Program-made: the position numbers and the translations under genes
The notes under the pieces: generated by a model
Told to the model about the DNA's origin: nothing
Databases searched by the model: none
The model's input: the letters and a program-made list of their open reading frames with translations, nothing else
In this document: positions 35,300 to 60,268 of the stretch, piece by piece
How positions within the stretch are numbered: position 1 is the stretch's first letter
Layout: each line of letters begins with the position of its first letter
Assembly: GCA_010909165.1 (NCBI GenBank)
Contig: VJWM01000223.1
Coordinates: 1 to 64,000 of the forward strand
DNA from: Anthoceros angustus
Lineage: Eukaryota; Plantae; Anthocerotophyta
Reading direction: 5' to 3'
DNA length: 64,000 nt

Positions 35300-36705
35300 G
35301 CGCAAAAGTCACGATGCACTTCTCTGCGGATTCAAGTCGAGGCAAATGCACAAGCTTGAAAGACAGCCACAAAGCCGTGAGCATCCGCCTTCACACACGA
35401 TCTCGCATGTCATGGTGCAGTGTATGGCCTCTTCGGGTTTCCCATGTTCGAGTAAGCGGTGATGATGGAAAACCACATGAAGGCATATGGTTTCCCTACG
35501 GTGAACACATCCATGGCCTCCTGCACCTACCTCCACTTGCATACATGCGCAACAAATGGTTCGCCAAGTATGCATGCGACTCGTACCAAGTTTGTGATAA
35601 GATCATGAACTCGTCGCCCCACAAACAAATCCTTCACAGGCTGCACATAGTTTTAACACAACATATACGAGGCGGAAATAGGACAATTTTCCAAGCCCGG
35701 AGATTCGAGCTGCGGCCTCGATAAGCTTCCCTGGCGTAGCGTGATCACGGCGGTATTCGACACCCATTTCCGATCCTGCGCTGCCGACCTCACGATTAGC
35801 GGAGAGCTCGGTGCAAGGAGACTCGAAGGATCGTGGGCGCCATCGTGGAAAGAGGAGAGGAGAGGAGAGGAGAGGAGGCAAGAGTAGCTCTCACATTGAG
35901 ATGAGGCTTGGAGGTATTTATACCCTCAGAGTCCAGGCTCACAAGAAGCTCCTAGGAAGGAGCACAAGAAGCTTCCTAGTGATTAGCTTAAGCTAAACTA
36001 ATGATACTTAAGACACCTAACTTAGACTAAGTGTATTAGTCTAAGTACATTGAGCTTTAATACCCTTACGGACTCGCCATGAGCCATGTGCATATCCAAA
36101 GCAGCTCGTCCACCCAAGTTGGCTTGAACATCTTTGTTTAACCAGAGGACACATGCCCTTCATGCACACCTCCCTTCCGGAAATCGTGAGGAGCTCTTCT
36201 TATCTCGTTGTCCCACCACATCGTAGGGTCGGAAAAATTGTTGCCACAAGAGCTCCTGCTCGCCACGACCATCATTGGAAAATCCTTCCCCACCCACACA
36301 CTTTCGAAGGTGGAAGTCTTTGGGTTGCTCATCTTCTGGAGGTTTGGCTGGTTACGTGCTTGACCCAGCGAGGTGACGTGCGTGGGAGCTCCTTGTAGAA
36401 TCCACCTCGCTCGCCACTTTGTTGGGTCCACAAGGGATCCGGTTTCCATATTGTAGCCACGTTACAGGCACCGCCCTCGAAGATGGAGCCGAGGCGGACA
36501 CAAACTACCTATGAGCGTGATAGATCGGCCGGAGGACACATGCCCTTCATGCACACCTCCCTTCCGGATCTGACGCTAGTTTGCAACTTTGGCCATCGCA
36601 ACTGCTCATCCTGGGCGAAAACTCCAACTTGGGCAGCAAGCTTCTGAGGCCTTGGTGATCATGGGGCATTTGCGAAATTGACCGCCTCACATTGCACCAC
36701 TGCAA
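35300..36705 (-). pseudogene. OSB-PPR fragment, copy C (with solo LTR)
   Basis: Same motifs as copy A. Confidence 0.7.
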
Positions 36706-37041
36706 GGCCAAGGAACTTGGGCCTATGTACATAGGTATATCTTGATGTACCTATATTATTGTCGAAGACCAAGGAACGATGGGGCTATATATGTATATGT
36801 TATATAAGTTACTTATATTATTGATAATCTTTGAGAAAAATTTCATCCTAAGATTATATAATAATTTTCATGATATAAATTACCGAGAACCAAGGAACAT
36901 TAGGCTATCTATATATGCAAGTATATAGGTTGTTTTATTATTGCACAATCGCTGATAGTTTTACAAAAGCTTGGTGGAAAGCTAGTTTCGCAGAGTATTA
37001 AAAACCAAGCTAGCTAGTTTGTGTGAGAGTACCGAAAAACA

Positions 37042-38031
37042 ATGGACATGAATAATACTGCCTATGCTCTCAATTCACGACATTTGCCCCAGTTGCGAAG
37101 ATAGATGAAGGCGCGTCTGCGGAAATATTCAGTTTAATCATGATATAATTAAAATTATACCTCTTGACAACGAGCGTGAGGAGCAACATCTTGAAGCGAT
37201 AAACAATGAATTCTTGATCGCATAGACTTTGGCCACCTTACAAGATGCAGAGGCTCCTTTTGCTGCACTAATTTCTTATGCAACAAATCCCATGCAATAT
37301 GGGAAGGACCACTCTTTTCCGAGTTTATTATTGCTAAGGCGCCGGTGGGTGTCCTATGCAACAAGGTTTCCTCTAGAGTATCCACCTTGTCAAAGGTTCG
37401 GGATGATTGTACAAGAGGAGGCTGGGATTCCTTTGTCAAAATTCCAATTTCACACAATGCGAAATCAAAAGCATGTTATTGCAAGTAACTCTTGCTTTAC
37501 ACGTAGCACAAAAGCTTATGGATTCGAGCATCGTGACCTCCATACAAAAATATTCTTTTGACTTATCGGAGATCAACAAAGTGTTGAATTCTATACCGTA
37601 TGCAATAGAAAGAAAAAATCAAAACATACGGAATAAGGGTATCTATAATAGATTTGGATTATCACGTATGCAACGTGATACACAAGTCCTATTTAGCAAA
37701 GTGGCAAAATTTGAGCCGAGGGATATCATTTGCGCTGCACTTGGAATCGTGTGCACGAAATTGTGGGCTCAAATTGGGACCATAGTTTCCCTAAGATCAA
37801 TGCGATATGGATCAATTATCTAACTCAAGTCGTTGCTGCAAAAGCAGTTGAAAACCAAGAATTGCCCCTAAATTGCCTTCAACAATTATTTGCTTTTCTT
37901 TGGACGAGTAACATTGTGTAACACAACAGAGATTGGAAGAGACCGGTTTTCAAGACATGTGGCTAAAAGAAATGTCGAGTGAAGTCAAACTACATTCTAA
38001 TTCTTATTCAAAAGTTAAGATGACATTGTAA
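37042..38031 (+). CDS. Haspin-like protein kinase, copy 4
   Basis: ORF 37229..37561 ends KAYGFEHRDLHTK. Confidence 0.8.
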
Positions 38032-38626
38032 CCCAACGGTGAATTAGGCGTACACTAAAGGTCGAGTGCATAATTCCTTGCATTTTCTCTCAAAAGAATC
38101 CCTTGTATTCTCATTTTCACAAGGATAAGGTAAGAGGGCAGCTAGATGCAATAATTCCTTTTTCGATTCCTTGATAAAAAGAAAGTTGGGCGAGACTTTC
38201 TTCACTATAGCCATTAATTTTTATAAGTGTAAATAATTTTCAAACAACGTGAATTTTTATCTTCAAAGATCTAGTAATGTCATCGAGTTCTCTAGTTTGG
38301 TATGGTGGTTAGATCTCGTTCCATACATGTATGCGAATGATCGCACTATCCAAATACTCTAACTGCACTTCCTTTGAGGAGTGACACGTTTGTCGCAATG
38401 AATTCATTGGATGGAACTACGTGGTTAAGCAACCCTTGGCTAGAATGCTCGAGATGGGGTACCACTCACCTACCCAATTGCTCCGGGCCCTTGAAGTGAC
38501 ACGAAGCCATGAGTTCATTGGCACTCCGTGGTTAAGCAACCCTCCGGTGCCCAATTGCTCCTAGCCATGGCCCTTGGTGGCTCTGTTGTAATCTGAGAGC
38601 GTTCATTGGCACTCCGTGGTCAAGTG

Positions 38627-40030
38627 GCGCAAAAGTCACATGCACTTCTGCGGATTCAAGTCGAGGCAAATGCACAAGCTTGAAAGACAGCCACAAAGCG
38701 TGAGCATCCGCCTTCACACACGATCTCGCATGTCATGGTGCAGTGTATGGCCTCTTCGAGTTTCCCATGTTGAGTAGCGGTGATGATGGAAAACCACATG
38801 AAGGCATATGGTTTCCCTACAGTGAACACATCCATGGCCTCCTGCAGCCTACCTCCACTTGCATACATGCGCAACAAATGGTTCGCCAAGTATGCATGCG
38901 ACTCGTACCAAGTTTGTGATAAGATCATGAACTCGTCGCCCACAAACAAATCCTTCACAGGCTGCACATAGTTTTAACACAACATATACGAGGCGGAAAT
39001 AGGACAATTTTCCAAGCCCGAGATTCCAGTGCAGCGGCCTCGATGGCTTCCCTGGCGGCGTAGCGTGATCACGGCGGTATTCTGACACCCATTTCCGATC
39101 CTGCCGCTGCCGACCTCACGATTAGCGGAGAGCTCGGTGCAAGGAGACTCAAGGATCGTGGCATCTTGGTGGAAAGAGGAGAGGAGAGAGGAGGAGGCAA
39201 GAGTAGCTCTCTCACATTGAGATGAGGCTTGGAGGTATTTATACCCTCAGCGGGCTCCTAGGAGCTCCACAAGAAGCTCCTAGGAAGGAGCACAAGAAGC
39301 TTCCTAGTGATTAGCTTAAGCTAAACTAATGATACTTAACGACACCTAACTTAGACTAAGTGTATTGGTCTAAGTACATTGCTTTAATACCCTTACGGAC
39401 TCGCCATGAGCCATGTGCATATCCAAAAGCAAGCTCGTCCACCCAAGTTGGCTTGAACATCTTTGTTTAACGGAGGACCTCGCTGGACCCCTTCCAGAAA
39501 TCAGGCGGCGAGCTCTTCTTATCTACTTTGTTGTCCCACCACATCGTAGGGTCCAAAAATTGTTGCCACAAGAGCTCCTGCTCCCACCCACGACCATCAT
39601 TGGAAAATCCTTCCCCACCCACACACTTTCGAAGGTGGAAGTCTGGGTTGCTCATCTTCTTGCACACGGAGGTTTGGCTGGTTACGGTGCTTGACCCGAG
39701 GTGGCGTGCGTGGGAGCTCCTTGTAGAATCCACCTCGCTCGCCACTTTGTTGGGTCCACAAGGGATCCGGTTTCCATATTGTAGCCACGTTACGGGCACC
39801 GCCCTCGAAGATGGAGAGGCGGACACAAACTACCTATGAGCGTGATAGATCAGCGGAGGACACATGCCCTTCATGCACACCTCCCTTCCGGATCTGACGC
39901 TAGTTTGCAACGCCATCTTGCAACTGCTCATCCGGGCGAAACTCCAACTTGGGCAGCAAGCTTGCGAGGCTCCTTTTGCTGCACTTGGAATCGTGTGCGA
40001 AATTGACCGCCTCACATTGCACCACCTGGC
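38627..40030 (-). pseudogene. OSB-PPR fragment, copy D (with solo LTR)
   Basis: ORF 39467..39826 gives QELLWQQFLDPTMWWDNKVDKKSSPPDFWKGSSEVL. Confidence 0.75.
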
Positions 40031-40364
40031 CAAGGCCAAGGAACTTGGGCCTATGTACATAGGTATATCTTGATGTACCTATATTATTGTCGAAGACCAA
40101 GGAACGTGGGGCTATATGTATATGTTATATAAGTTACTTATATTATTGATAATCTTTGAGAAAAATTTCATCCTAAGATTATATAATAATTTTCATGATA
40201 TAAATTACCGAGAACCAAGGAACATTAGGCTATCTATATATGCAAGTATATAGGTTGTTTTATTATTGCACAATCGCTGATAGTTTTACAAAAGCTTGGT
40301 GGAAAGCTAGTTTCGCAGAGTATTAAAAACCAAGCTAGCTAGTTTGTGTGAGAGTAGAAAAACA

Positions 40365-41348
40365 ATGGACATGAATAATACTGCCTATGCTCTCAATTCA
40401 CGACATTTGCCCCAGTTGCGAAGATAGATGAAGGCGTCTGCGGAAATATTCAGGTTTAATCATGATATAATTAAAATTATACCTCTTGACAACGAGCGTG
40501 AGGAGCAACATCTTGAAGCGATAAACAATGAATTCTTGATCGCAGACTTTGGCCACCTTACAAGATGCAGAGGCTCCTTTTGCTGCACTAATTCTTATGC
40601 AACAAATCCCATGCAATATGGGAAGGACCACTCTTTTCCGAGTTTATTATTGCTAAGGCGCAGTGGGTGTCCTATGCAACAAGGTTTCCTCTAGAGTATC
40701 CACCTTGTCAAAGGTTCGGGATGATTGTACAAGAGGAGGCTGGGATTCCTTTGTCAAAATTCCAATTTTCACACAATGCAGAAATCAAAAGCATGTTATT
40801 GCAAGTAACTCTTGCTTTACACGTAGCACAAAAGCTTATGGATTCGAGCATCGTGACCTCCATACAAAAATATTCTTTTGACTTATCGAGATCAACAAAG
40901 TGTTGAATTCTATACCGTATGCAATAGAAAGAAAAAATCAAAACATACGGAATAAGGGTATCTATAATAGATTTCGGATTATCACGTATGCAACGTGATA
41001 CACAAGTCCTATTTAGCAAAGTGGCAAAATTTGAGCCGAGGGATATCATTTGCGCTGCACTTGGAATCGTGTGCGAAATTGTGGGCTCAAATTGGGACCA
41101 TAGTTTCCCTAAGATCAATGCGATATGGATCAATTATCTAACTCAAGTCGTTGCTGCAAAGCAGTTGAAAACCAAGAATTGCCCCTAAATTGCCTTCAAC
41201 AATTATTTGCTTTTCTTTTGAATGAGTAACATTGTGTAACAGCAGAGATTGGAAGAGACCGGTTTTCGAAGACATGTGGCTAAAAGAAATGTCGAGTGAA
41301 GTCAAACTACATTCTAATTCTTATTCAAAAGTTAAGATGACATTGTAA
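40365..41348 (+). CDS. Haspin-like protein kinase, copy 5
   Basis: Same motifs as copy 1. Confidence 0.8.
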
Positions 41349-41944
41349 CCCAACGGTGAATTAGGCGTACACTAAAGGTCGAGTGCATAATTCCTTGCAT
41401 TTTCTCTCAAAAGAATCCCTTGTATTCTCATTTTCACAAGGATAAGGTAAGAGGGCAGCTAGATGCAATAATTCCTTTTCGATTCCTTGATAAAAAGAAA
41501 GTTGGGCGAGAGACTTTCTTCACTATAGCCATTAATTTTTATAAGTGTAAATAATTTTTACAATTTTCAAACCGTGAATTTTTATCTTCAAAGATCTAGT
41601 AATGTCATCGAGTTCTCTAGTTTGGTATGGTGGTTAGATCTCGTTCCATACATGCGAATGATCGCACTATCCAAATACTCTAACACTTCCTTTGAGGGTG
41701 ACACGTTTGTCGCAATGAATTCATTGGATGGAACTACGTGGTTAAGCAACCCTTGGCTAGAATGCTCACGAGATGGGGTACCACTCACCTACCCAATTGC
41801 TCCGGGCCCTTGAAGTGACACGAAGCCATGAGTTCATTGGCACTCCGTGGTTAAGCAACCCTCCGGTGCCCAATTGCTCCTAGCCATGGCCCTTGGTGGC
41901 TCTGTTGATACCGTGAGCGTTCATTGGCACTCCGTGGTCAAGTG

Positions 41945-43138
41945 GCGCAAAAGTCACAGTGCACTTCTCTGCGGATTCAAGTCCGAGGCAAATGCACAAG
42001 CTTGAAAGACAGCCACAAAGCCGTGAGCATCCGCCTTCACACGATCTCGCATGTCATGATGCAGTGTATGGCCTCTTCAGTTTCCATGTTCGAGTAAGCG
42101 GTGATGATGGAAAACCACATGAAGGCATATGGTTTCCCTACAGTGAACACATCCATGGCCTCCTGCAGCCTACCTCCACTTGCATACATGCGCAACAAAT
42201 GGTTCGCCAAGTATGCATGCGACTCGTACCAAGTTTGTGATAAGATCATGAACTCGTCGCCCCACAAACAAATCCTTCACGGCTGCACATAGTTTTAACA
42301 CGGCATATACGAGGCGGAAATAGGACAATTTTCCAAGCCCGGAGATTCCAGTACACCTCGATAAGCTTCCCTGGCGGCGTAACGTGATCACGGCGGTATT
42401 CTGACACCCATTTCCGATCTGCCGCTGCCGGCCTCACGATTAGCGGAGGCTCGGTGCAAGGAGACTCGCCATGAGCCATGCATATCCAAAAGCGTGCTCG
42501 TCCACCCAAGTTGGCTTGAACATCTTTGTTTAACGAGGACCTCGCTGGACCCCTTCCATGGGAATCGGGCGGCGGGGCTCTTCTTATCTACTTTGTTGTC
42601 CCACCACATCGTAGGGTCGGAAAAATTGTTGCCACAAGAGCTCCTTGTAGAATCCACCTCGCTCGCCACGACCATCATTGGAAAATCCTTCCCCACCACA
42701 CACTTTCGAAGGTGGAAGTCTTTGGGTTGCTCATCTTCTTTGGAGGTTTGGCTGGTTACCGATGCTTGACCCGAGGTGGCGTGCGTGGGAGCTCCTTGTA
42801 GAATCCACCTCGCTCGCCACTTTGTTGGGTCCACAAGGGATCCGGTTTCCATATTGTAGCCACGTTACAGGCACCGCCCTCGAAAGATGGAGCCGAGGCG
42901 GACACAAACTACCTATGAGCGTGATAGATCGGCCGGAGGACACATGCCCTTCATGCACACCTCCCTTCCGGATCTGACGCTAGTTTGCAACAGCCATCTT
43001 GCAACTGTTCATCCTGGGCGAAAACTCCAACTTGGGCAGCAAGCTTGAAAGACAGCCACAAAGCCGTGAGCATCCGCCTTCACACGATCTCGCATGTCAT
43101 GAATTCATTGGATGGAACCCTCACATTGCACCTGGCCA
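41945..43138 (-). pseudogene. OSB-PPR fragment, copy E (no solo LTR)
   Basis: Empty site gcaaggaGACTCgccatgag at 42463-42467. Confidence 0.7.
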
Positions 43139-43468
43139 GGCCAAGGAACTTGGGCCTATGTACATAGGTATATCTTGATGTACCTATATTATTGTCGAAG
43201 ACCAAGGAACGTGGGGCTATATGTATATGTTATATAAGTTACTTATATTATTGATAATCTTTGAGAAAAATTTCATCCTAAGATTATATAATAATTTTCA
43301 TGATATAAATTACGAGAACCAAGGAACATTAGGCTATCTATATATGCAAGTATATAGGTTGTTTTATTATTGCACAATCGCTGATAGTTTTACAAAAGCT
43401 TGGTGGAAAGCTAGTTTCAGAGTATTAAAAACCAAGCTAGCTAGTTTGTGTGAGAGTACCGAAAAACA

Positions 43469-44444
43469 ATGGACATGAATAATCCTATGCTCTCAATTCA
43501 CGACATTTGCCCCAGTTGCGAAGATAGATGAAGGCGTCTGCGGAAATATTCAGGTTTAATCATGATATAATTAAAATTATACCTCTTGACAACGAGCGTG
43601 AGGAGCAACATCTTGAAGCGATAAACAATGAATTCGATCGCAGACTTTGGCCACCTTACAAGATGCAGAGGCTCCTTTTGCTGCACTAATTCTTATGCAA
43701 CAAATCCCATGCAATATGGGAAGGACCACTCTTTTCCGAGTTTATTATTGCTAAGGCGCCGTCGTGTCCTATGCAACAAGGTTTCCTCTAGAGTATCCAC
43801 CTTGTCAAAGGTTCGGGATGATTGTACAAGAGGAGGCTGGGATTCCTTTGTCAAAATTCCAATTTTCACACAATGCGAAATCAAAAGCATGTTATTGCAA
43901 GCAACTCTTGCTTTACACGTAGCACAAAAGCTTATGGATTCGAGCATCGTGACCTCCATACAAAAATATTCTTTTGACTTATCTTTGGAGATCAACAAAG
44001 TGTTGAATTCTATACCGTATGCAATAGAAAGAAAAAATCAAAACATACGGAATAAGGGTATCTATAATAGATTTCGGATTATCACGTATGCAACGTGATA
44101 CACAAGTCCTATTTAGCAAAGTGGCAAAATTTGAGCCGAGGGATATCATTTGCTGCACTTGGAATCGTGTGCACGAAATTGTGGGCTCAAATTGGGACCA
44201 TAGTTTCCCTAAGATCAATGCGATATGGATCAATTATCTAACTCAAGTCGTTGCTGCAAAGCAGTTGAAAACCAAGAATTGCCCCTAAATTGCCTTCAAC
44301 AATTATTTGCTTTTCTTTGGGAGTAACATTGTGTAACACAGAGATTGGAAGAGACCGGTTTTCGAAGACATGTGGCTAAAAGAAATGTCGAGTGAAGTCA
44401 AACTACATTCTAATTCTTATTCAAAAGTTAAGATGACATTGTAA
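43469..44444 (+). CDS. Haspin-like protein kinase, copy 6
   Basis: Same motifs as copy 1. Confidence 0.8.
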
Positions 44445-45047
44445 CCCAACGGTGAATTAGACGTACACTAAAGGTCGAGTGCATAATTCCTTGCATTTTC
44501 TCTCAAAAAGAATCCCTTGTATTCTCATTTTCACAAGGATAAGGTAAGAGGGCAACTAGATGCAATAATTCCTTTTTCGATTCCTTGATAAAAAGAAAGT
44601 TGGGCGAGAGACTTTCTTCACTATAGCCATTAATTTTTATAAGTGTAAATAATTTTTACATTTTTCAAAGACTGTGAATTTTTATCTTCAAAGATCTAGT
44701 AATGTCATCGAGTTCTCTAGTTTGGTATGGTGGTTAGATCTCGTTCCATACAATATGCGAATGATCGCACTATCCAAATACTCTAACGCACTTCCTTTGA
44801 GGAGTGACACGTTTATGCAATGAATTCATTGGATGGAACTACGTGGTTAAGCAACCCTTGGCTAGAATCTCGAGATGGGGTACCACTCACCTACCCAATT
44901 GCTCGGGCCCTTGAAGTGACACGAAGCCATGAGTTCATTGGCACTCCGTGGTTAAGCAACCCTCCGGTGCCCAATTGCTCCTAGCCATGGCCCTTGGTGG
45001 CTCTGTTATGATACCGTGAGCGTTCATTGGCACTCCGTGGTCAAGTG

Positions 45048-46452
45048 GCGCAAAAGTCACATGCACTTCTCTGCGGATTCAAGTCGAGGCAAATGCACAA
45101 GCTTGAAGAGACCACAAAGCCGTGAGCATCCGCCTTCACACGATCTCGCATGTCATGATGCAGTGTATGGCCTCTTCAGTTTCCCATGTTGAGTAGCGGT
45201 GATGATGGAAAACCACATGAAGGCATATGGTTTCCCTACAGTGAACACATCCATGGCCTCCTGCACCTACCTCCACTTGCATACATGCGCAACAAATGGT
45301 TCGCCAAGTATGCATGCGACTCGTACCAAGTTTGTGATAAGATCATGAACTCGTCGCCCACAAACAAATCCTTCGGCTGCACATAGTTTTAACACGGCAT
45401 ATACGAGGCGGAAATAGGACAATTTTCCAAGCCCGGAGATTCCAGGCTGCAGCGGCCTCGATAAGCTTCCCTGGCGTAGCGTGATCACGGCGGCGGTATT
45501 CTGACACCCATTTCCGATCCTGCCGCCACCTCACGATTAGCCGGAGAGCTCGGTGCAAGGAGACTACGAAGGATCGTGCATATCTTCAGTGGAAAGAGGA
45601 GAGAGAGAGGAGGAGGCAAGAGTAGCTCTCACATTGAGATGAGGCTTGGAGGTATTTATACCCTCAGGAGAGGAGCTCCACAAGAAGCTCCTAGGAAGGA
45701 GCACAAGAAGCTTCCTAGTGATTAGCTTAAGCTAAACTAATGATATAACCGACACCTAACTTAGACTAAGTGTATTAGTCTAAGTACATTGAGCTTTAAT
45801 ACCCACACTCGCCATGAGCCATGTGCATATCCAAAGAAAGCAGCTCCACCCAAGTTGGCTTGAACATCTTTGTTTAACCAGAGGACCTCGCCTCACATTG
45901 CACCGCCCTCGAAAGATGGAGTGAGGAGCTCTTCTTATCTACTTTGTTGTCCCACCACATCGTAGGGTCGGAAAAATTGTTGCCACAAGAGCTCTGCTCG
46001 CCACGACCATCGAAAATCCTTCCCCACACACTTTCGAAGGTGGAAGTCTGGGTTGCTCATCTTCGCACTGGAGGTTTGGCTGGTTACCAGTGCTTGACCC
46101 ACTGAGGTGACGTGCGTGGGAGCTCCTTGTAGAATCCACCTACGCTCGCCACTTTGTTGGGTCCACAAGGGATCCGGTTTCCATATTGTAGCCATGTTAC
46201 AGGCACCGCTCTCGAAAGATGGAGTTGAGGCGGACACAAACTACCTATGAGCGTGATAGATCAGCCAGAGGACATATGCCCTTCATGCACACCTCCCCTT
46301 CCAGATACAGACGCTAGTTTGCAACCTGGCCATGCTGCAACCTGCTCATCCTGGAACGAAAACTCCAACTTGGGCAGCAAGCTTATGAGGCCTTGGTATG
46401 ATCAGAGGGCATTTGCGAAATTGACCTGCCCTCACATTGCACCCTGCAACCG
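45048..46452 (-). pseudogene. OSB-PPR fragment, copy F (with solo LTR)
   Basis: Same motifs as copy A. Confidence 0.7.
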
Positions 46453-46790
46453 AAGGCCAAGGAACTTGGGCCTATGTACATAGGTATATCTTCAGTGTAC
46501 CTATATTATTGTCGAAGACCAAGGAACGTGGGGCTATATATGTATATGTTATATAAGTTACTTATATTATTGATAATCTTTGAGAAAAATTTCATCCTAA
46601 GATTATATAATAATTTTCATGATATAAATTACCGAGAACCAAGGAACATTAGGCTATCTATATATGCAAGTATATAGGTTGTTTTATTATTGCACAATCG
46701 CTGATAGTTTTACAAAAGCTTGGTGGAAAGCTAGTTTGTGAGAGTATTAAAAACCAAGCTAGCTAGTTTGTGTGAGAGTACCGAAAAACA

Positions 46791-47772
46791 ATGGACATGA
46801 ATAATACTGCCTATGCTCTCAATTCACGACATTTGCCCCAGTTGCGAAGATAGATGAAGGCGGCGTCTGCGGAAATATTCAGGTTTAATCATGATATAAT
46901 TAAAATTATACCTCTTGACAACGAGCGTGAGGAGCAACATCTTGAAGCGATAAACAATGAATTCTTGATCGCGAGACTTTGGCCACCTTACAAGATCAGA
47001 GGCTCCTTTTGCTGCACTAATTCTTATGCAACAAATCCCATGCAATATGGGAAGGACCACTCTTTTCCGAGTTTATTATTGCTAAGGCGCCGGTGGGTGT
47101 CCTATGCAACAAGGTTTCCTCTAGAGTATCCACCTTGTCAAAGGTTCGGGATGATTGTACAAGAGGAGGCTGGGATTCCTTTGTCAAAATTCCAATTTCA
47201 CACAATGCGAAATCAAAAGCATGTTATTGCAAGTAACTCTTGCTTTACGTAGCACAAAAGCTTATGGATTCGAGCATCGTGACCTCCATACAAAAATATT
47301 CTTTTGACTTATCGAGATCAACAAAGTGTTGAATTCTATACCGTATGCAATAGAAAGAAAAAATCAAAACATACGGAATAAGGGTATCTATAATAGATTT
47401 GGATTATCACGTATGCAACGTGATACACAAGTCCTATTTAGCAAAGTGGCAAAATTTGAGCCGAGGGATATCATTTTGCACTTGGAATCGTGTGCACGAA
47501 ATTGTGGGCTCAAATTGGGACCATAGTTTCCCTAAGATCAATGCGATATGGATCAATTATCTAACTCAAGTCGTTGCTGCAAAGCAGTTGAAAACCAAGA
47601 ATTGCCCCTAAATTGCCTTCAACAATTATTTGCTTTTGCTTTTGGACGAGTAACATTGTGTAACACAACAGAGATTGGAAGAGACCGGTTTTCAAGACAT
47701 GTGGCTAAAAGAAATGTCAGTGAAGTCAAACTACATTCTAATTCTTATTCAAAAGTTAAGATGACATTGTAA
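46791..47772 (+). CDS. Haspin-like protein kinase, copy 7
   Basis: Same motifs; C-terminal frame in ORF 47548..47772. Confidence 0.8.
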
Positions 47773-48368
47773 CCCAACGGTGAATTAGACGTACACTAAA
47801 GGTCGAGTGCATAATTCCTTGCATTTTCTCTCAAAAGAATCCCTTGTATTCTCATTTTCACAAGGATAAGGTAAGAGGGCAGCTAGATGCAATAATTCCT
47901 TTTCGATTCCTTGATAAAAAGAAAGTTAGGCGAGACTTTCTTCACTATAGCCATTAATTTTTATAAGTGTAAATAATTTTACAATTTTCAAACACTGAAT
48001 TTTTATCTTCAAAGATCTAGTAATGTCATCGAGTTCTCTAGTTTGGTATGGTGGTTAGATCTCGTTCCATACTATGCGAATGATCGCACTATCCAAATAC
48101 TCTAACGCACTTCCTTTGAGGAGTGACACGTTTATCATGAATTCATTGGATGGAACTCGTGGTTAAGCAACCCTTCGGCTAGAAACGCTCGAGATGGGGT
48201 ACCACTCACCTACCCAATTGCTCGGGCCCTTGAAGTGACACGAAGCCATGAGTTCATTGGCACTCCGTGGTTAAGCAACCCTCCGGTGCCCAATTGCTCC
48301 TAGCCATGGCCCTTGGTGGCTCTGTTGATACCGTGAGAACGCGTTCATTGGCACTCCGTGGTCAAGTG

Positions 48369-49797
48369 GCGCAAAAGTCACAGTGCACTTCTCTGCGGAT
48401 TCCAAGTCGAGGCAAATGCACAAGCTTGAAAGACAGCCACAAAGCCGTGAGCATCCGCCTTCACACACGATCTCGCATGTCATGCAGTGTATGGCCTCTT
48501 CGAGTTTCCCATGTTCGAGTAGCGGTGATGATGGAAAACCATATGAAGGCATATGGTTTCCCTACCGTGAACACATCCATGGCCTCCTGCACCTACCTCC
48601 ACTTGCATACATGCGCAACAAATGGTTCGCCAAGTATGCATGCGACTCGTACCAAGTTTGAGAAGATCATGAACTCGTCGCCCACAAACAAATCCTTCAC
48701 GGCTGCACATAGTTTTAACACGGCATATACGAGGCGGAAATAGGACAATTTGCCAAGCCCGGAGATTCCAGTGCAGCGGCCTCGATAAGCTTCCCTGGCG
48801 GCGTAGCGTGATCACGGCGGTATTCTGACACCCATTTCCGATCCTGCGCGCCGACCTCACGATTAGCGGAGCTCGGTGCAAGGAGACTCGAAGGATCGTG
48901 GATGGATCTGGAAAGAGGAGAGGAGGAGGAGGCAAGAGTAGCTCTCTCACATTGAGATGAGGCTTGGAGGTATTTATACCCTCCAGCAGCTCCTAGGAAG
49001 CTCCACAAGAAGCTCCTAGGAAGGAGCACAAGAAGCTTCCTAGTGATTAGCTTAAGCTAAACTAATGATACTTAACGACACCTAACTTAGACTAAGTGTA
49101 TTAGTCTAAGTACATTGGGCTTTAATACCCTTGACTCGCCATGAGCCATGTGCATATCCAAAGCAGCTGCTCGTCCACCCAAGTTGGCTTGAACATCTTT
49201 GTTTAACGGAGGACCTCTGGACCCTTCATAATCAGGCGGCGAGCTCTTCTTATCTACTTTGTTGTCCCACCACATCGTAGGGTCGGAAAAATTGTTGCCA
49301 CAAGAGCTCCTTGTAGAATCCACCTCGCTCGCCACGACCATATTTGAAAATCCTTCCCCACCACACACTTTGAAGGTGGAAGTCTTTGGGTTGCTCATCT
49401 TCGCACTGGAGGTTTGGCTGGTTACGTGCTTGACCCACGAGGTGGCGTGCGTGGGAGCTCCTTGTAGAATCCACCTCGCCACTTTGTTGGGTCCACAAGG
49501 GATCCGGTTTCCATATTGTAGCCACGTTACGGGCACCGCCCTCGAAGATGGGTGAGGCGGACACAAACTACCTATGAGCGTGATAGATCAGCGGAGGACA
49601 CATGCCCTTCATGCACACCTCCCTTCCGGATCTGACGCTAGTTTGCGCCATCTTGCAACTGTTCATCCTGAACGAAAACTCCAACTTGGGCCTATGTACA
49701 TAGGTATATCTTGATTGTACAAGAGGAGGCTGGGATTCCTTTGTCAAAATTCCAATTTCACACAATGCGAAATTGACCGCCTCACATTGCACCAGCA
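48369..49797 (-). pseudogene. OSB-PPR fragment, copy G (with solo LTR)
   Basis: Same motifs as copy A. Confidence 0.7.
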
Positions 49798-50135
49798 AGG
49801 CCAAGGAACTTGGGCCTATGTACATAGGTATATCTTGATTGTACCTATATTATTGTCGAAGACCAAGGAACGTGGGGCTATATATGTATATGTTATATAA
49901 GTTACTTATATTATTGATAATCTTTGAGAAAAAATTTCATCCTAAGATTATATAATAATTTTCATGATATAAATTACGAGAACCAAGGAACATTAGGCTA
50001 TCTATATATGCAAGTATATAGGTTGTTTTATTATTGCACAATCGCTGATAGTTTTACAAAAGCTTGGTGGAAAGCTAGTTTGTGTGAGAGTATTAAAAAC
50101 CAAGCTAGCTAGTTTGTGTGAGAGTACCAAAAACA

Positions 50136-51115
50136 ATGGACATGAATAATACGCCTATGCTCTCAATTCACGACATTTGCCCCAGTTGCGAAGATAGATG
50201 AAGGCGTCTGCGGAAATATTCAGTTTAATCATGATATAATTAAAATTATACCTCTTGACAACGAGCGTGAGGAGCAACATCTTGAAGCGATAAACAATGA
50301 ATTCTTGATCGCGAGACTTTGGCCACCTTACAAGATGCAGAGGCTCCTTTTGCTGCACTAATTTCTTATGCAACAAATCCCATGCAATATGGGAAGGACC
50401 ACTCTTTTCCGAGTTTATTATTGCTAAGGCGCCGGTGGGTGTCCTATGCAACAAGGTTTCCTCTAGAGTATCCACCTTGTCAAAGGTTCGGGATGATTGT
50501 ACAAGAGGAGGCTGGGATTCCTTTGTCAAAATTCCAATTTCACACAATGCAGAAATCAAAAGCATGTTATTGCAAGTAACTCTTGCTTTACACGTAGCAC
50601 AAAAGCTTATGGATTCGAGCATCGTGACCTCCATACAAAAATATTCTTTTGACTTATCGAGATCAACAAAGTGTTGAATTCTATACCGTATGCAATAGAA
50701 AGAAAAAATCAAAACATACGGAATAAGGGTATCTATAATAGATTTCGGATTATCACGTATGCAACGTGATACACAAGTCCTATTTAGCAAAGTGGCAAAA
50801 TTTGAGCCGAGGGATATCATTTCTGCACTTGGAATCGTGTGCGAAATTGTGGGCTCAAATTGGGACCATAGTTTCCCTAAGATCAATGCGATATGGATCA
50901 ATTATCTAACTCAAGTCGTTGCTGCAAAGCAGTTGAAAACCAAGAATTGCCCCTAAATTGCCTTCAACAATTATTTGCTTTTCTGGACGAGTAACATTGT
51001 GTAACACAACAGAGATTGGAAGAGACCAGTTTTCGAAGACATGTGGCTAAAAGAAATGTCGAGTGAAGTCAAACTACATTCTAATTCTTATTCAAAAGTT
51101 AAGATGACATTGTAA
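50136..51115 (+). CDS. Haspin-like protein kinase, copy 8
   Basis: Same motifs as copy 1. Confidence 0.8.
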
Positions 51116-51713
51116 CCCAACGGTGAATTAGACGTACACTAAAGGTCGAGTGCATAATTCCTTGCATTTTCTCTCAAAAGAATCCCTTGTATTCTCATTT
51201 TCACAAGGATAAGGTAAGAGGCAGCTAGATGCAATAATTCCTTTTCGATTCCTTGATAAAAAGAAAGTTGGGCGAGAGACTTTCTTCACTATAGCCATTA
51301 ATTTTTATAAGTGTAAATAATTTTACAATTTTCAAACACGTGAATTTTTATCTTCAAAGATCTAGTAATGTCATCGAGTTCTCTAGTTTGGTATGGTGGT
51401 TAGATCTCGTTCCATACGTATGCGAATGATCGCACTATCCAAATACTCTAACCGCACTTCCTTTGAGGAGTGACACGTTTGTCATAATGAATTCATTGGA
51501 TGGAACTACGTGGTTAAGCAACCCTTGGCTAGAATGCTCGAGATGGGGTACCACTCACCTACCCAATTGCTCGGGCCCTTGAAGTGACACGAAGCCATGA
51601 GTTCATTGGCACTCCGTGGTTAAGCAACCCTCCGGTGCCCAATTGCTCCTAGCCATGGCCCTTGGTGGCTCTGTTGATACCGTGAGCGTTCATTGGCACT
51701 CCGTGGTCAAGTG

Positions 51714-53088
51714 GCGCAAAAGTCACAGTGCACTTCTCTGCGGATTCAAGTCCGAGGCAAATGCACAAGCTTGAAAGACAGCCACAAAGCCGTGAGCATC
51801 CGCCTTCACACGATCTCGCATGTCATGGTACAGTGTATGGCCTCTTCAGTTTCCCATGTTCGAGTAGCGGTGATGATGGAAAACCATGAAGGCATATGGT
51901 TTCCCTACCAGTGAACACATCCATGGCCTCCTGCAGCCTACCTCCACTTGCATACATGCGCAACAAATGGTTCGCCAAGTATGCATCGACTCGTACCAAG
52001 TTTGACAAGAAGATCATGAACTCGTCGCCCCACAAACAAATCCTTCCGGCTGCACATAGTTTTAACACGGCATATACGAGGCGGAAATAGGACAATTTTC
52101 CAAGCCCGAGATTCCGAAACAGCGGCCTCGATGGCTTCCCTGGCGGCGTAACGTGATCACGGCGGCGGTATTCTGACACCCATTTCCGATCACCGCTGCC
52201 GACCTCACGATTAGCCGGGCTCGGTGCAAGGAGACTACGAAGGATCGTGGGCGACCATCTGATGGAAAGAGGAGAGGAGAGGAGAGGAGGAGGAGGCAAG
52301 AGTAGCTCTCTCACATTGAGATGAGGCTTGGAGGTATTTATCCAACAGGCTCCCTAAGCTCCACAAGAAGCTCCTAGGAAGGAGCACGAAGCTTCCTAGT
52401 GATTAGCTTAAGCTAAACTAATGATACTTAACGACACCTAACTTAGACTAAGTGTATTAGTCTAAGTACATTGCTTTAATAAAACTTGCCATGAGCCATG
52501 TGCATATCCAAAGCAGTGCTCGTCCACCCAAGTTGGCTTGAACATCTTTCAGGACCACGACTTGGAAAATCAGTGGAGCTCTTCTTATCTCGTTGTCCCA
52601 CCACATCGTAGGGTCGGAAAAATTGTTGCCACAAGAGCTCCTGCTCGGCCACGACCATCTGGAAAATCCTTCCCCACCCACACACTTTCGAAAGGTGGAA
52701 GTGGGTTGCTCATCTGGAGGTTTGGCTGGTTACTGCTTGACCCGAGGTGGCGTGCGTGGGAGCTCCTTGTAGAATCCACCTCGCCGCCACTTTGTTGGGT
52801 CCACAAGGGATCCGGTTTCCATATTGTAGCCACGTTACAGGCACCGCCCTCGAAAGATGGAGTGAGGCGGACACAAACTACCTATGAGCGTGATAGATCG
52901 CCGGAGGACACATGCCCTTCATGCACACCTCCCTTCCGGATCTGACGCTAGTTTGCAACCTCATTTACAACTTGATTTGTTCATCCTGGGCGAAACTCCA
53001 ACTTGGGCAGCAAGCTTGAAATTGACCGCCTCACATTGAGATGAGGCTTGGCATTTGCGAAATTGACCGCCTCACATTGCACCACACA
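51714..53088 (-). pseudogene. OSB-PPR fragment, copy H (with solo LTR)
   Basis: Same motifs as copy A. Confidence 0.7.
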
Positions 53089-53422
53089 AGGCCAAGGAAC
53101 TTGGGCCTATGTACATAGGTATATCTTGATGTACCTATATTATTGTCGAAGACCAAGGAACGTGGGGCTATATATGTATATGTTATATAAGTTACTTATA
53201 TTATTGATAATCTTTGAGAAAAATTTCATCCTAAGATTATATAATAATTTTCATGATATAAATTACCGAGAACCAAGGAACATTAGGCTATCTATATATG
53301 CAAGTATATAGGTTGTTTTATTATTGCACAATCGCTGATAGTTTTACAAAAGCTTGGTGGAAAGCTAGTTTCAGAGTATTAAAAACCAAGCTAGCTAGTT
53401 TGTGTGAGAGTACCGAAAAACA

Positions 53423-53744
53423 ATGGACATGAATAATACGCCTATGCTCTCAATTCACGACATTTGCCCCAGTTGCGAAGATAGATGAAGGCGTCTGGAA
53501 ATATTCAGGTTTAATCATGATATAATTAAAATTATACCTCTTGACAACGAGCGTGAGGAGCAACATCTTGAAGCGATAAACAATGAATTCGATCGCGAGA
53601 CTTTGGCCACCTTACAAGATGCGAGGCTCCTTTTGCTGCACTAATTTCTTATGCAACAAATCCCATGCAATATGGGAAGGACCACTCTTTTCCGAGTTTA
53701 TTATTGCTAAGGCGCCGGTCGTGTCCTATGCAACAAGGTTTCCT
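53423..53744 (+). pseudogene. Haspin-like kinase, copy 9, 3' two-thirds deleted
   Basis: caacaaGGTTTCCT joins directly to acgtgaacacatcc (PPR segment). Confidence 0.75.
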
Positions 53745-54893
53745 ACGTGAACACATCCATGGCCTCCTGCAGCCTACCTCCACTTGCATACATGCGCAAC
53801 AAATGGTTCGCCAAGTATGCATGACTCAAGTTTGATAAGATCATGAACTCGTCGCCCCACAAACAAATCCTTCCACAGCTGCACATAGTTTTAACACGGC
53901 ATATACGAGACGGGAAATAGGACAATTTTCCAAGCCCGAGATTCCGAGCTGCAGCCTCGATGGCTTCCCTGGCGGCGTAACGTGATCACGGCGGTATTCT
54001 GACACCCATTTCCGATCACGCACCCGGCCTCACGATTATCGGAGAGCTCGGTGCAAGGAGACTCAAGGATCGTGGGGTGCATCTTGTGGAAAGAGGAGAG
54101 AGGAGAGGAGGAGGAGGCAAGAGTAGCTCTCACATTGAGATGAGGCTTGGAGGTGCACCCTCCAGCAGGCTCCTAAGCTCCAGCTCCTAGGAAGGAGCAC
54201 GAAGCTTCCTAGTGATTAGCTTAAGCTAAACTAATGATACTTAACGACACCTAACTTAGACTAAGTGTATTAGTCTAAGTACATTGAGCTTTAATACCCA
54301 CCACTGCCATGAGCCATGTGCATATCCAAAGAAGCAGTGCTCGTCCACCCAAGTTGGCTTGAACATCGAGGACCTCTGGACCCTTCGGAAAATCTCCTCT
54401 TATCTCGTTGTCCCACCACATCGTAGGGTCGGAAAAATTGTTGCCACAAGAGCTCCGCTCCACGACCATCTGGAAAATCCTTCCCCACCCACACACTTTC
54501 GAAAGGTGGAAGTGGGTTGCTCATCTTCTGGAGGTTTGGCTGGTTACCGTGCTTGACCCGAGGTGGCGTGCGTGGGAGCTCCTTGTAGAATCCACCTCGC
54601 TCGCCACTTTGTTGGGTCCACAAGGGATCCGGTTTCCATATTGTAGCCACGTTACAGCACCGCCTCGAAAGATGGGAGGCGGACACAAACTACCTATGAG
54701 CGTGATAGATCGCCGGAGGACACATGCCCTTCATGCACACCTCCCTTCCAGATCTGACGCTAGTTTGCAACCTCATTTGCAACCTGTTCATCCTGGGCGA
54801 AACTCCAACTTGGGCAGCAAGCTTATGCGAGGCTCCTTTTGCTGCACTTGGAATCGTGTGCGAAATTGACCGCCTCACATTGCACCCCACCCG
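53745..54893 (-). pseudogene. OSB-PPR fragment, copy I (with solo LTR, further truncated)
   Basis: Same motifs, ending at EAMDVFT. Confidence 0.7.
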
Positions 54894-55227
54894 AAGGCCA
54901 AGGAACTTGGGCCTATGTACATAGGTATATCTTGATGTACCTATATTATTGTCGAAGACCAAGGAACGTGGGGCTATATATGTATATGTTATATAAGTTA
55001 CTTATATTATTGATAATCTTTGAGAAAAATTTCATCCTAAGATTATATAATAATTTTCATGATATAAATTACGAGAACCAAGGAACATTAGGCTATCTAT
55101 ATATGCAAGTATATAGGTTGTTTTATTATTGCACAATCGCTGATAGTTTTACAAAAGCTTGGTGGAAAGCTAGTTTCAGAGTATTAAAAACCAAGCTAGC
55201 TAGTTTGTGTGAGAGTACCGAAAAACA

Positions 55228-56209
55228 ATGGACATGAATAATACGCCTATGCTCTCAATTCACGACATTTGCCCCAGTTGCGAAGATAGATGAAGGCGTC
55301 TGGAAATATTCAGGTTTAATCATGATATAATTAAAATTATACCTCTTGACAACGAGCGTGAGGAGCAACATCTTGAAGCGATAAACAATGAATTCGATCG
55401 CGAGACTTTGGCCACCTTACAAGATGCAGAGGCTCCTTTTGCTGCACTAATTTCTTATGCAACAAATCCCATGCAATATGGGAAGGACCACTCTTTTCCG
55501 AGTTTATTATTGCTAAGGCGCCGGTCGTGTCCTATGCAACAAGGTTTCCTCTAGAGTATCCACCTTGTCAAAGGTTCGGGATGATTGTACAAGAGGAGGC
55601 TGGGATTCCTTTGTCAAAATTCAATTTCACACAATGCGAAATCAAAAGCATGTTATTGCAAGTAACTCTTGCTTTACACGTAGCACAAAAGCTTATGGAT
55701 TCGAGCATCGTGACCTCCATACAAAAATATTCTTTTGACTTATCTTTGGAGATCAACAAAGTGTTGAATTCTATACCGTATGCAATAGAAAGAAAAAATC
55801 AAAACATACGGAATAAGGGTATCTAATAGATTTGGATTATCACGTATGCAACGTGATACACAAGTCCTATTTAGCAAAGTGGCAAAATTTGAGCCGAGGG
55901 ATATCATTTCGCTGCACTTGGAATCGTGTGCACGAAATTGTGGGCTCAAATTGGGACCATAGTTTCCCTAAGATCAATGCGATATGGATCAATTATCTAA
56001 CTCAAGTCGTTGCTGCAAAGCAGTTGAAAACCAAGAATTGCCCCTAAATTGCCTTCAACAATTATTTGCTTTTCTTTGGACGAGTAACATTGTGTAACAC
56101 AACAGAGATTGGAAGAGACCGGTTTTTCGAAGACATGTGGCTAAAAGAAATGTCGAGTGAAGTCAAACTACATTCTAATTCTTATTCAAAAGTTAAGATG
56201 ACATTGTAA
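55228..56209 (+). CDS. Haspin-like protein kinase, copy 10
   Basis: Same motifs; gaccggtttttcgaagacatgtgg (DRFFEDMW) in frame. Confidence 0.8.
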
Positions 56210-56813
56210 CCCAACGGTGAATTAGACGTACACTAAAGGTCGAGTGCATAATTCCTTGCATTTTCTCTCAAAAGAATCCCTTGTATTCTCATTTTCACAA
56301 GGATAAGGTAAGAGGGCAACTAGATGCAATAATTCCTTTTCGATTCCTTGATAAAAAGAAAGTTGGGCGAGACTTTCTTCACTATAGCCATTAATTTTTA
56401 TAAGTGTAAATAATTTTTACAATTTTCAAAGACGTGAATTTTTATCTTCAAAGATCTAGTAATGTCATCGAGTTCTCTAGTTTGGTATGGTGGTTAGATC
56501 TCGTTCATACAATATGCGAATGATTGCACTATCCAAATACTCTAACCGCACTTCCTTTGAGGAGTGACACGCTTGTCGCAATGAATTCATTGGATGGAAC
56601 TACGTGGTTAAGCAACCCTTGGCTAGAATGCTCGAGATGGGGTACCACTCACCTACCCAATTGCTCCGGGCCCTTGAAGTGACACAGAAGCCATGAGTTC
56701 ATTGGCACTCCGTGGTTAAGCAACCCTCCGGTGCCCAATTGCTCCTAGCCATGGCCCTTGGTGGCTTTGTTATGATACCGTGAGAACGTTCATTGGCACT
56801 CCGTGGTCAAGTG

Positions 56814-57965
56814 GCGCAAAAAGTCACAGTGCACTTCTCTGCCGGATTCCAAGTCTGAGGCAAATGCACAAGCTTGAAAGACAGCCACAAAGCCGTGAGC
56901 ATCCGCCTTCACACCTGATCTACGCATGTCATGGTACAGGTGTATGGCCTCTTCAGGTTTCCCATGTTTAGAGTATGCGGTGATGATGGAAAACCACATG
57001 AAGGCATATGGTTTCCCTACCGTGAACACATCCATGGCCTCCTGCAGCCTACCTCCACTTGCATACATGCGCAACAAATGGTTCGCCAAGTATGCATGCG
57101 ACTATACCAAGTTTGTGATGATCATGAACTCGTCGCCCACAAACAAATCCTTCCGGCTGCACATAGTTTTAACACGGCATATACCGAGGCGGAAATAGGA
57201 CAATTTTCCAAGCCCCGGAGATTCCAGGCTGCAGCCTCGATAAGCTTCCCTGGCGGCGTAACGTGATCACGGTATTGACCCATTTCCGATCCTGCACGCC
57301 TGCCCGGCCTCACGATTAGCGGAGAGCTCGGTGCAAGGAGACTCGCCATGAGCCATGTGCATATCCAAAGCAGCTGCTCGTCCACCCAAGTTGGCTTGAA
57401 CATCTTTGTTTAACGAGAGGACCTCTTGGACCCCTTCCGCCGAATCGGTGACGGGAGCTCTTCTTATCTACTTTGTTGTCCCACCACATCGTAGGGTCCA
57501 GAAAAATTGTTGCCACAAGAGCTCTGCTCGGACGACCATCGTTGGAAAATCCTTCCCCACCACACACTTTACGAAAGGTGGAAGTCTTTGGGTTGCTCAT
57601 CTTCTTTGGAGGTTTGGCTGGTTACGTGCTTGACCGAGGTGGCGTGCGTGGGAGCTCCTTGTAGAATCCACCTCGCTCGCCACTTTGTTGGGTCCACAAG
57701 GGATCCGGTTTCCATATTGTAGCCACGTTCGACCGCCTCGAAGATGGAGTGAGGCGGACACAAACTACCTATGAGCGTGATAGATCGGCCGGAGGACACA
57801 TGCCCTTCATGCACACCTCCCTTCCAGATCTGACGCTAGTTTGCAACTGCCGCAACTGTTCATCCTGGGCGAAAACTCCAACTTGGGCAGCAAGCTTGCG
57901 AGGCTCCTTTTGCTGCACTTGGAATCGTGTGCGAAATTGACCGCCTCACATTGCACCCATGGCCA
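56814..57965 (-). pseudogene. OSB-PPR fragment, copy J (no solo LTR; PDF motif tail reads through into PPR)
   Basis: ORF 57122..57403 runs PTWVDEQL...GKLIEAA...SVYAVLKLCAA in one frame. ORF 56790..57089 is a clean PLS PPR stretch. Confidence 0.8.
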
Positions 57966-58300
57966 AGGCCAAGGAACTTGGGCCTATGTACATAGGTATA
58001 TCTTGATGTACCTATATTATTGTCGAAGACCAAGGAACGTGGGGCTATATATGTATATGTTATATAAGTTACTTATATTATTGATAATCTTTGAGAAAAA
58101 TTTCATCCTAAGATTATATAATAATTTTCATGATATAAATTACCGAGAACCAAGGAACATTAGGCTATCTATATATGCAAGTATATAGGTTGTTTTATTA
58201 TTGCACAATCGCTGATAGTTTTACAAAAGCTTGGTGGAAAGCTAGTTTGCAGAGTATTAAAAACCAAGCTAGCTAGTTTGTGTGAGAGTACCAAAAAACA

Positions 58301-59272
58301 ATGGACATGAATAATACTGCCTATGCTCTCAATTCACGACATTTGCCCCAGTTGCGAAGATAGATGAAGGCGTCTGCGGAAATATTCAGTTTAATCATGA
58401 TATAATTAAAATTATACCTCTTGACAACGAGCGTGAGGAGCAACATCTTGAAGCGATAAACAATGAATTCGATCGCAGACTTTGGCCACCTTACAAGATC
58501 AGAGGCTCCTTTTGCTGCACTAATTTCTTATGCAACAAATCCCATGCAATATGGGAAGGACCACTCTTTTCCGAGTTTATTATTGCTAAGGCGCGGTCGT
58601 GTCCTATGCAACAAGGTTTCCTCTAGAGTATCCACCTTGTCAAAGGTTCGGGATGATTGTACAAGAGGAGGCTGGGATTCCTTTGTCAAAATTCCAATTT
58701 CACACAATGCGAAATCAAAAGCATGTTATTGCAAGTAACTCTTGCTTTACACGTAGCACAAAAGCTTATGGATTCGAGCATCGTGACCTCCATACAAAAA
58801 TATTCTTTTGACTTATCGAGATCAACAAAGTGTTGAATTCTATACCGTATGCAATAGAAAGAAAAAATCAAAACATACGGAATAAGGGTATCTAATAGAT
58901 TTGGATTATCACGTATGCAACGTGATACACAAGTCCTATTTAGCAAAGTGGCAAAATTTGAGCCGAGGGATATCATTTACGCACTTGGAATCGTGTGCGA
59001 AATTGTGGGCTCAAATTGGGACCATAGTTTCCCTAAGATCAATGCGATATGGATCAATTATCTAACTCAAGTCGTTGCTGCAAAGCAGTTGAAAACCAAG
59101 AATTGCCCCTAAATTGCCTTCAACGATTATTTGCTTTTCTTTGGACGAGTAACATTGTGTAACACAACAGAGATTGGAAGAGACCAGTTTTCAAGACATG
59201 TGGCTAAAAGAAATGTCGAGTGAAGTCAAACTACATTCTAATTCTTATTCAAAAGTTAAGATGACATTGTAA
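58301..59272 (+). CDS. Haspin-like protein kinase, copy 11 (last; adjoins unique flank)
   Basis: Same motifs as copy 1. Confidence 0.8.
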
Positions 59273-60268
59273 CCAACGGTGAATTAGGCGTACACTAAAG
59301 GTCGAGTGCATAATTCCTTGCATTTTCTCTCAAAAGAATCCCTTGTATTCTCATTTTCACAAGGATAAGGTAAGAGGGCAGCTAGATGCAATAATTCCTT
59401 TTCGATTCCTTGATAAAAAGAAAGTTGGGCGAGACTTTCTTCACTATAGCCATTAATTTTTATAAGTGTAAATAATTTTTACAATTTTCAAACACGTGAA
59501 TTTTTATCTTCAAAGATCTAGTAATGTCATCGAGTTCTCTAGTTTGGTATGGTGGTTAGATCTCGTTCCATACAATATGCGAATGATCGCACTATCCAAA
59601 TACTCTAACTGCACTTCCTTTGAGGGTGACACGTTTCTCGCCATGAATTCATTGGATGGAACTACGTGGTTAAGCAACCCTTCTAGAACGCTCGAGATGG
59701 GGTACCACTCACCTACCCAATTGCTCCGGGCCCTTGAAGTGACACAGAAGCCATGAGTTCATTGGCACTCCGTGGTTAAGCAACCCTCCGGTGCCCAATT
59801 GCTCCTAGCCATGGCCCTTGGTGGCTCTGTTATGATACCATGAGAACGTTCATTGGCTCTCCGTGGTCAAGTGATCCTCCTCTGGTGCCCAATTACTCCG
59901 GGCCATGGCCCTTGGTGGCCTGTTTGTTATGATTAAAAGGGACCTCAAAAACAAGTTCGTAATGTGATGTGAGTGTTTGTCGTTTATTTATTTTATTTTA
60001 CGGGAGGGTAGATTGGCGCGGAAGAATACTTTATTTTATAGGAAGAATACTTTATTTTATAGGAGCATAGAAGAATCCTTGCATGGAAATCTAACAAGCC
60101 CACCCCATAGGGTGAGAGGACATGAATTTTTAATATCAATCCTTCTTCCAAAGGATGTTGCTTTGTAATATAAAATCTATTAGACATGAGGAAACCCATC
60201 CCAATAATTATCCACATTAACTGTGATCTACACTTATAAGAATATCAATATAGGGGCTGGCCTCCCTA

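Follow-up and report, generated by a model that had tools for sequence, protein, structure and literature searches.

Truncated copies of a PDF-PLS-PPR gene in a tandem array of Anthoceros angustus, and intact relatives resembling organellar RNA editing factors

The minus strand of a locus in Anthoceros angustus carries a PDF motif, W-QQFF-DPTMWWDNKVDKKSS-PDF...PTWVDEQL, upstream of a PPR tract at 56813-57265. The locus raises the question of whether a chimeric protein is encoded there, as proposed in a preliminary description, or whether the two domains were joined in an older gene of which only a part is present. The window (the whole stretch of DNA analysed, 64 kb in length) was studied together with its relatives in protein databases. 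With a probability of roughly 0.6, the locus is a truncated and likely pseudogenised copy of the 5' third of a PDF-PLS-PPR gene, the relatives of this gene are likely organellar C-to-U editors, and their PDF motif is a predicted ssDNA tether.

The locus is part of a repeated structure, whose main elements are as follows.

26223..59872, minus strand: tandem array of 11 head-to-tail units, with 0-3 substitutions per 566 spacer columns against the majority
56813..59872, minus strand: copy K, the 11th unit with the highest coordinates, insertion-free
26223..26290, minus strand: copy A, the last unit in the gene direction, interrupted within the PDF motif by unrelated sequence
29186..29434, minus strand: LTR-like insertion, shown for copy B, with a 4-5 bp target-site duplication

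The array units are about 3.06 kb long, or 3.3 kb with the insertion, and contain ~1.9 kb of upstream DNA followed by the 5' part of the PDF-PPR gene. The 11th copy is lettered K here and corresponds to "copy J" of the preliminary description. The remainder of the parent gene beyond copy A is absent from the 64-kb window. It is likely that the array originated from a recent segmental tandem duplication of the upstream DNA and the 5' exon, and that the insertion then spread through part of it. The insertion of ~250 bp lies between the PDF motif and the PPR motifs in 8 of the 11 copies. Copies lacking it had been described, and two copies do lack it (about 41.9-43.2 kb and 56.8-58.0 kb). In an error-prone sequence context, the termini of the insertion as assembled are not TG...CA, and its identity as a solo LTR is therefore unproven.

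The copies differ in the spacer by 0-3 substitutions but by 3-10 indel columns per 566 columns. Disagreement among copies is 0.17 near CG/CHG and 0.10 elsewhere, in a count made with the insertion and with gapped rows included. In some copies, the sequence also jumps over short distances between repeated words. The indel pattern points to long-read error with imperfect polishing. The window sequence is thus presumably noisy, so that the reading frames of single copies are unreliable and most individual frameshifts are untrustworthy. The array unit itself is real, since contigs of run X1 agree with the spacer (0-1 differences over 166-187 nt). Run X2 shows no cover on the AT-rich spacer.

Several irregularities were observed in the array and around it. 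A direct repeat of ~135 bp (25498-25637 and 26083-26219) lies exactly where copy A is cut, and the sequence interrupting copy A, possibly an inserted element, has TG as its first minus-strand letters. Copy J is cut at 53737 inside an S-like motif and joined to spacer DNA, with an array step of 1.8 kb. A degenerate local repeat of ~85-100 bp, at 59640-59935 and at the same place in every unit, holds the unit boundary and runs into the unique flank; this repeat is a possible starting point of the duplication. No support was obtained for the array being of Helitron origin, because the unit boundary is inside this short repeat, which continues into the unique flank. The segments 49683-49832, 43036-43118, and 29525-29641 duplicate short parts found at other places in the unit, among them the PDF core, which is doubled in copy B, and they look like polishing artefacts rather than biology. 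Outside the array, two direct repeats of ~4 kb (9640-13526 and 19543-24286, the latter with an internal duplication of ~900 bp) are ~89-92% identical with strong strand skews, and might represent the LTRs of a large retroelement. Another direct repeat of ~285 bp (60263-60547 and 60988-61273) shows 86% identity. The Pfam scan of 10 long ORFs outside the array gave no match, nor did the Rfam search of the window.

Within the gene fragment, the following parts were distinguished, in the direction of the gene for copy K.

57528..57965, minus strand: 5' coding region, without an OB/SSB fold
57370..57527 (about), minus strand: OSB-type PDF motif, a profile match split over frames, with the first Trp at 57515 and WWDN at 57486
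57266..57369, minus strand: linker, with the empty insertion site at 57340-57344
56813..57265, minus strand: start of the PLS-type PPR tract, a degenerate first helix pair followed by L-, S-, P-, and cut L-like motifs
56812..56813, minus strand: breakpoint, at which the next unit begins directly after the gene fragment; a stop follows within a few codons, and 9 of 11 copies have the same junction
39470..39595, minus strand: longest in-frame PDF stretch of copy E, used as search query

The assignment of the motif to the OSB-type PDF motifs was borne out. A profile built from 15 PDF motifs of six outside proteins matched all 11 copies with 12.6-25.5 bits, while the best of 10 shuffles reached 8.9. 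The WWDN block agrees with OSB profiles, and the window stretch retrieves OSBs as well as PDF+PPR proteins. With the 42-residue in-frame stretch of copy E as query, six proteins were obtained from 1.84 billion representatives: two with a Pfam SSB domain and PDF motifs, two with PDF motifs and PPRs, and two with PDF motifs and no Pfam match. Word-based protein searches gave no match with the PDF stretch of copy F (15 candidates) or with the PPR ORF (45 candidates); their sensitivity is low, and these results do not indicate absence. Pfam has no family for the PDF stretch, which may explain why the motif was missed, and the ESM Atlas gave no usable match for one PDF stretch. At a loose end at 57451, paralogue contigs continue the motif as S-P-D-F-R-R-K-G-S-G. 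In each of the runs X1 and X2, 32-52 contigs have other letters at PDF positions, which indicates that Anthoceros angustus has a large family of paralogues with this motif.

The region 57528..57965 probably encodes a transit peptide and a disordered stretch. A 485-nt relative in run X2 aligns to 57537-57981 with 25 other letters and 46 gaps. This region had been described as containing a weakly SSB-like stretch, which found no support: the best score of an OB-fold profile in the whole window was 5.6 bits (frameshifts lower the sensitivity in the window, not in intact relatives). The profile was made from 22 OSB-type proteins, and as a control it recognized 39 of 44 non-PPR matches at 20 bits or higher, including 20 outside the training set.

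In the PPR tract, the ORF at 56793-57101 matches Pfam PPR_2 at 56865-57002 with 51.6 bits (cut-off 30). The tract shows 35-39% identity to lycophyte PDF-PPR proteins with tblastn, and is collinear with PLS-E-DYW proteins; the L and S motif types were assigned by eye from these tblastn alignments. The PDF motif and the PPR motifs had been considered directly adjacent in the insertion-free copies, but a linker of roughly 35-40 codons precedes the first PPR-like helix. The distance from the first Trp of the PDF motif to the Trp of the first P motif is 519 nt (173 codons) in copy K and 517 nt in copy F. An ORF at 57122-57409, supposed to run from one domain into the other in one frame, does exist; it includes only the last ~10 residues of the PDF motif, no complete PPR, and no Pfam match. 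The WWDN/PDF core lies in frames other than that of this ORF. The linker frame resembling the relatives (D-x-L-A-A-L after WV) also appears to differ from it, and the ORF is likely to read the linker out of frame.

The breakpoint lies inside an L-like motif, and X2 paralogue contigs (11 records) continue as PPR from 56824. No E/DYW match (best E 0.44) and no further PPR was found in the window. A chimeric protein encoded at this locus is thus unsupported: the copies are truncated and lack E/DYW, 9 of 11 share the breakpoint, and 8 of 11 carry the insertion. The array probably yields no full-length protein.

The combination of domains is nevertheless genuine in other proteins. The profile search against proteins of 502-2000 residues gave 175 matches, 120 of which were listed, and 76 of the 120 carry both the PDF motif and PLS-type PPRs. 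The last 16 residues of the query took in the first PPR-like helix of P0005; each of the 76 proteins has its own PDF motif of at least 15 bits. Lack of any homologue joining the two domains had been named in advance as evidence against the architecture. Intact homologues do join them, often with an E/DYW end, and the architecture itself therefore stands. Among the 76, 67 are from Diphasiastrum complanatum, 3 from Ceratodon purpureus, 3 from Adiantum, 1 from Ceratopteris, and 2 are without a species name. No PDF+PPR protein from a named seed plant is present among the matches listed, where the seed-plant matches are OSB-type proteins without PPR. Since 55 of the 175 matches are outside the listing and the database is incomplete, this absence from seed plants is only suggested.

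The relatives from moss, lycophyte, and fern share the layout of an N-terminal extension, one to three PDF motifs, a linker, a PLS array, and an E/E+/DYW:PG end. In all 76 listed proteins the first PDF motif precedes the PPRs; one PDF motif is present in 47 of them, two in 21, and three in 8. A DYW end is found in 27 of the 76, with the catalytic HxE and the PG box each conserved in 26 of the 27, and none of the 27 has a KP-type box. Pfam E, E+, and DYW were found on all four of the scanned DYW-ending proteins. The other 49 of the 76 have no DYW end; thus, many members are not self-sufficient deaminases, with the reservation that some may be incomplete gene models. The OB-fold profile recognized none of the 76. 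In 45 of the 74 measurable proteins, the PDF Trp and the Trp of the first P motif are 174 residues apart, and in 62 of the 74 the distance is 165-177 residues; the family spacing of 174 residues matches the 173 codons of copy K.

The PDF motif is the best conserved part among the regions compared. Between Ceratodon P0109 and 20 lycophyte and fern proteins, mean identity is 61% in the PDF motif, 6% in the linker, 32% in the first PPRs, and 14% in the N-terminus. That the PDF motif is better conserved than the PPRs from moss through lycophyte to fern suggests a function that has been overlooked. The consensus of 113 PPR-linked PDF motifs is the same as that of 185 OSB-type PDF motifs at W, P, WWDNR, K, PDFKHK, LW, and P-x-WV. 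A quick tree built from 93 PDF motifs over 53 columns gave little resolution. It sampled 39 of the 113 PPR-linked motifs, 45 of the 185 OSB-type motifs (the lycophyte and OSB rows being a random subsample), and 9 motifs from P0001, P0002, and P0006; P0005 and P0022 were labelled as fern by assumption.

Some individual proteins deviate from the common pattern. P0015, P0021, and P0046 have 6-11 PDF motifs each with neither an OB fold nor PPR, and are PDF-only arrays. In 12 of the 27 DYW domains (P0086, P0094, P0096, and nine more from Diphasiastrum), HSEKQA is present instead of HSEKLA, and the DYW domain of P0081 is without the catalytic Glu. P0051 is the only one among the listed PDF+PPR matches with a second PDF motif inside the PPR array (residue 679), and may represent two fused gene models.

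AlphaFold2 predicted the PDF motif as a small helix-strands-helix domain of its own (pLDDT 87.5). In P0109 it is located between disordered stretches at 1-48 and 109-164, and the disorder separates it from the PPR solenoid. It would accordingly be a separately folded domain on a disordered linker. A PDB sequence search with the PDF motif gave one chance-level match (E 0.93), Foldseek with the PDF model gave no match at E<=0.001, and the best Z of VIA-align over 48,161 chains was 2.8 (rmsd 2.9, 44 aligned). These structure searches do not show that the PDF fold is new. The PDF motif may be of bacterial origin. The window copies are truncated and, for the most part, interrupted; they are fragments derived from one member of an old and expanded family and do not represent a new local fusion.

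In PLS-E-DYW:PG proteins, the PPR array reads an organellar RNA sequence and one C is deaminated. The PPR-linked PDF motif keeps the OSB consensus positions, and on this sequence evidence its most likely role is continued ssDNA binding, by which the editor is tethered at nucleoids. The anchoring sites would be stretches of exposed nucleoid ssDNA, such as transcription bubbles and R-loops. Tethering would raise the concentration of the editor near nascent transcripts, and the PPRs would give the specificity. The link between ssDNA and RNA recognition suggested in the preliminary description is thus kept as the most likely role of the PDF-PPR family, as far as sequences can tell, and not of the locus. 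Reviews dealing with angiosperm OSBs describe the PDF motif as the ssDNA-binding part, and OSB1 and OSB2 as preferring ssDNA over dsDNA or RNA (PMC4166229, PMC6963530, PMC6451138). Many PPR proteins are described as nucleoid-associated (PMC10226603). On the other side, a moss DYW factor, which may or may not carry a PDF motif, is reported to edit in E. coli with 14 residues before the first PPR (PMC10482289); this counts against tethering, as an N-terminal module is then no general requirement. Also to be set against the preferred reading is the origin of 67 of the 76 listed relatives from one species, Diphasiastrum complanatum.

A wider reading can be formulated only tentatively. Seed-free land plants could possess an undescribed ancient class of editors, in which an OSB-derived ssDNA-binding domain tethers PPR-DYW proteins to organelle DNA and editing is coupled to nucleoid transcription. 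From moss to fern this class would have persisted, multiplying in lineages with heavy editing; seed plants would have lost it, with separate MORF-like helpers taking over. Taken as a whole, this is possible and rather doubtful.

The main rival to ssDNA tethering assumes the same locus history and the same family. According to it, the PDF motif in PPR proteins binds ssRNA without sequence preference and prevents folding of the transcript on the 5' side of the PPR site; it would be an internal helper, comparable to the RRM, MORF, or zinc-finger partners in the editosomes of seed plants. PPR arrays are reported to bind RNA in the 5'-3' direction along the protein from N- to C-terminus (PMC13041630), and with a flexible linker of ~55 residues the N-terminal domain would sit by the upstream RNA. 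Fusions of accessory domains with PPR are described as common, and PPR and ORRM proteins were proposed as the main constituents of moss and hornwort editosomes (PMC13386178). However, OSB1 and OSB2 were reported to favour ssDNA over RNA, and the PPR-linked motif retains the OSB consensus positions. Binding to ssRNA is unlikely, and the most probable of the alternatives.

Much less probable is an alternative that concerns the locus itself. The insertion-free copies would encode a short protein composed of a transit peptide, the PDF motif, and about three PPRs, with a role as decoy or truncated regulator, and assembly errors would account for the frameshifts. The differences between copies are mostly indels, enriched near CG/CHG (0.17 vs. 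0.10), as expected of long-read errors. The distance from the PDF motif to the P motif in copy K is divisible by three, and a contig of run X2, whose RNA origin is a guess, matches 57278-57370 at about 93% in the insertion-free form; on one side it extends fewer than 31 letters beyond the insertion site. Transcription of the insertion-free copies, or of a very close paralogue, may thus occur, and both observations also speak against a fully dead locus. Among the contig matches listed, none spans from PDF to PPR, and the joints seen have sides of less than 30 nt. Against a short protein, a short-read contig of run X1 (57049-57138) backs the frameshift near 57103, where 7 copies carry the exact sequence. 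A second apparent shift, inside the PDF motif, is letter-identical in 9 copies, with no outside support in the tables shown. Moreover, the tract is cut in the middle of a motif, and 8 of the 11 copies contain the insertion.

It is very improbable that PDF-PLS-DYW proteins act on organellar ssDNA instead of RNA, in sequence-specific DNA deamination or in the control of recombination. Designer PPRs are reported to recognize ssDNA through the code that they use for RNA, at a lower affinity (PMC13041630), the PDF motif is an ssDNA-binding motif, and HxE is kept in 26 of 27 DYW domains. However, the expansion in a lycophyte (67 of the 76 listed) is as in editing-factor families, the C-terminus is an ordinary DYW:PG, and no sign of DNA deamination was seen in this analysis. 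The least probable alternative takes the PDF motif as a protein-interaction or oligomerisation module, in line with AtOSB2 being a tetramer, or as a passenger of gene duplication, in line with many PLS factors functioning without it, but a passenger would not be expected to show 61% identity among moss, lycophyte, and fern proteins when the adjacent linker shows 6%. The preferred reading remains a truncated gene copy whose intact relatives are likely editors with a predicted ssDNA tether.

PLS-DYW editors are usually drawn as a transit peptide, a PPR array, and E/DYW, and their N-termini are removed in heterologous assays. Among the papers listed by full-text literature searches, none describes a PDF-PPR fusion, and an earlier mention may exist in Gutmann 2020, Gerke 2020, or Zaegel 2006. 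The main text of a survey of editing-factor fusions in 364 genomes (PMC13386178) has 0 occurrences of OSB, PDF, and single-stranded, and five sought terms are without occurrence in PMC13263110. The PDF-PPR family is apparently an undescribed variant of known editing factors. The window locus in itself is ordinary, a decaying tandem array of gene fragments. The PDF-PPR proteins allow direct tests of a spatial coupling between organellar editing and the nucleoid, and of how editors are assisted in lineages that lack MORFs.

Three known systems are comparable. OSB1-4/PTAC9, reportedly studied as organellar ssDNA-binding proteins by Zaegel et al. in 2006, share with the PDF-PPR proteins the PDF motif of ~50 residues, which is present once or several times and conserved at the same positions. 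The PDF-PPR proteins differ in having no OB/SSB-like domain (none of the 76 listed; window best 5.6 bits), and their PDF motif is N-terminal and followed by PPRs, whereas it is C-terminal in OSB1-4/PTAC9. The RRM-PPR, MORF, and OZ fusions are similar in that a nucleic-acid-binding or helper domain is fused to a PPR protein, but the domains described there are RRM, MORF, or zinc-finger domains, not PDF (PMC13386178). With PLS-E-DYW:PG editors such as Physcomitrium PPR56 (PMC10482289), the intact relatives share PLS-type arrays, E/E+, the PG box, and DYW with HxE and CxxC. To this organization the PDF-PPR relatives add one to three PDF motifs at a conserved distance before the array, while the window copies end after about three PPR motifs.
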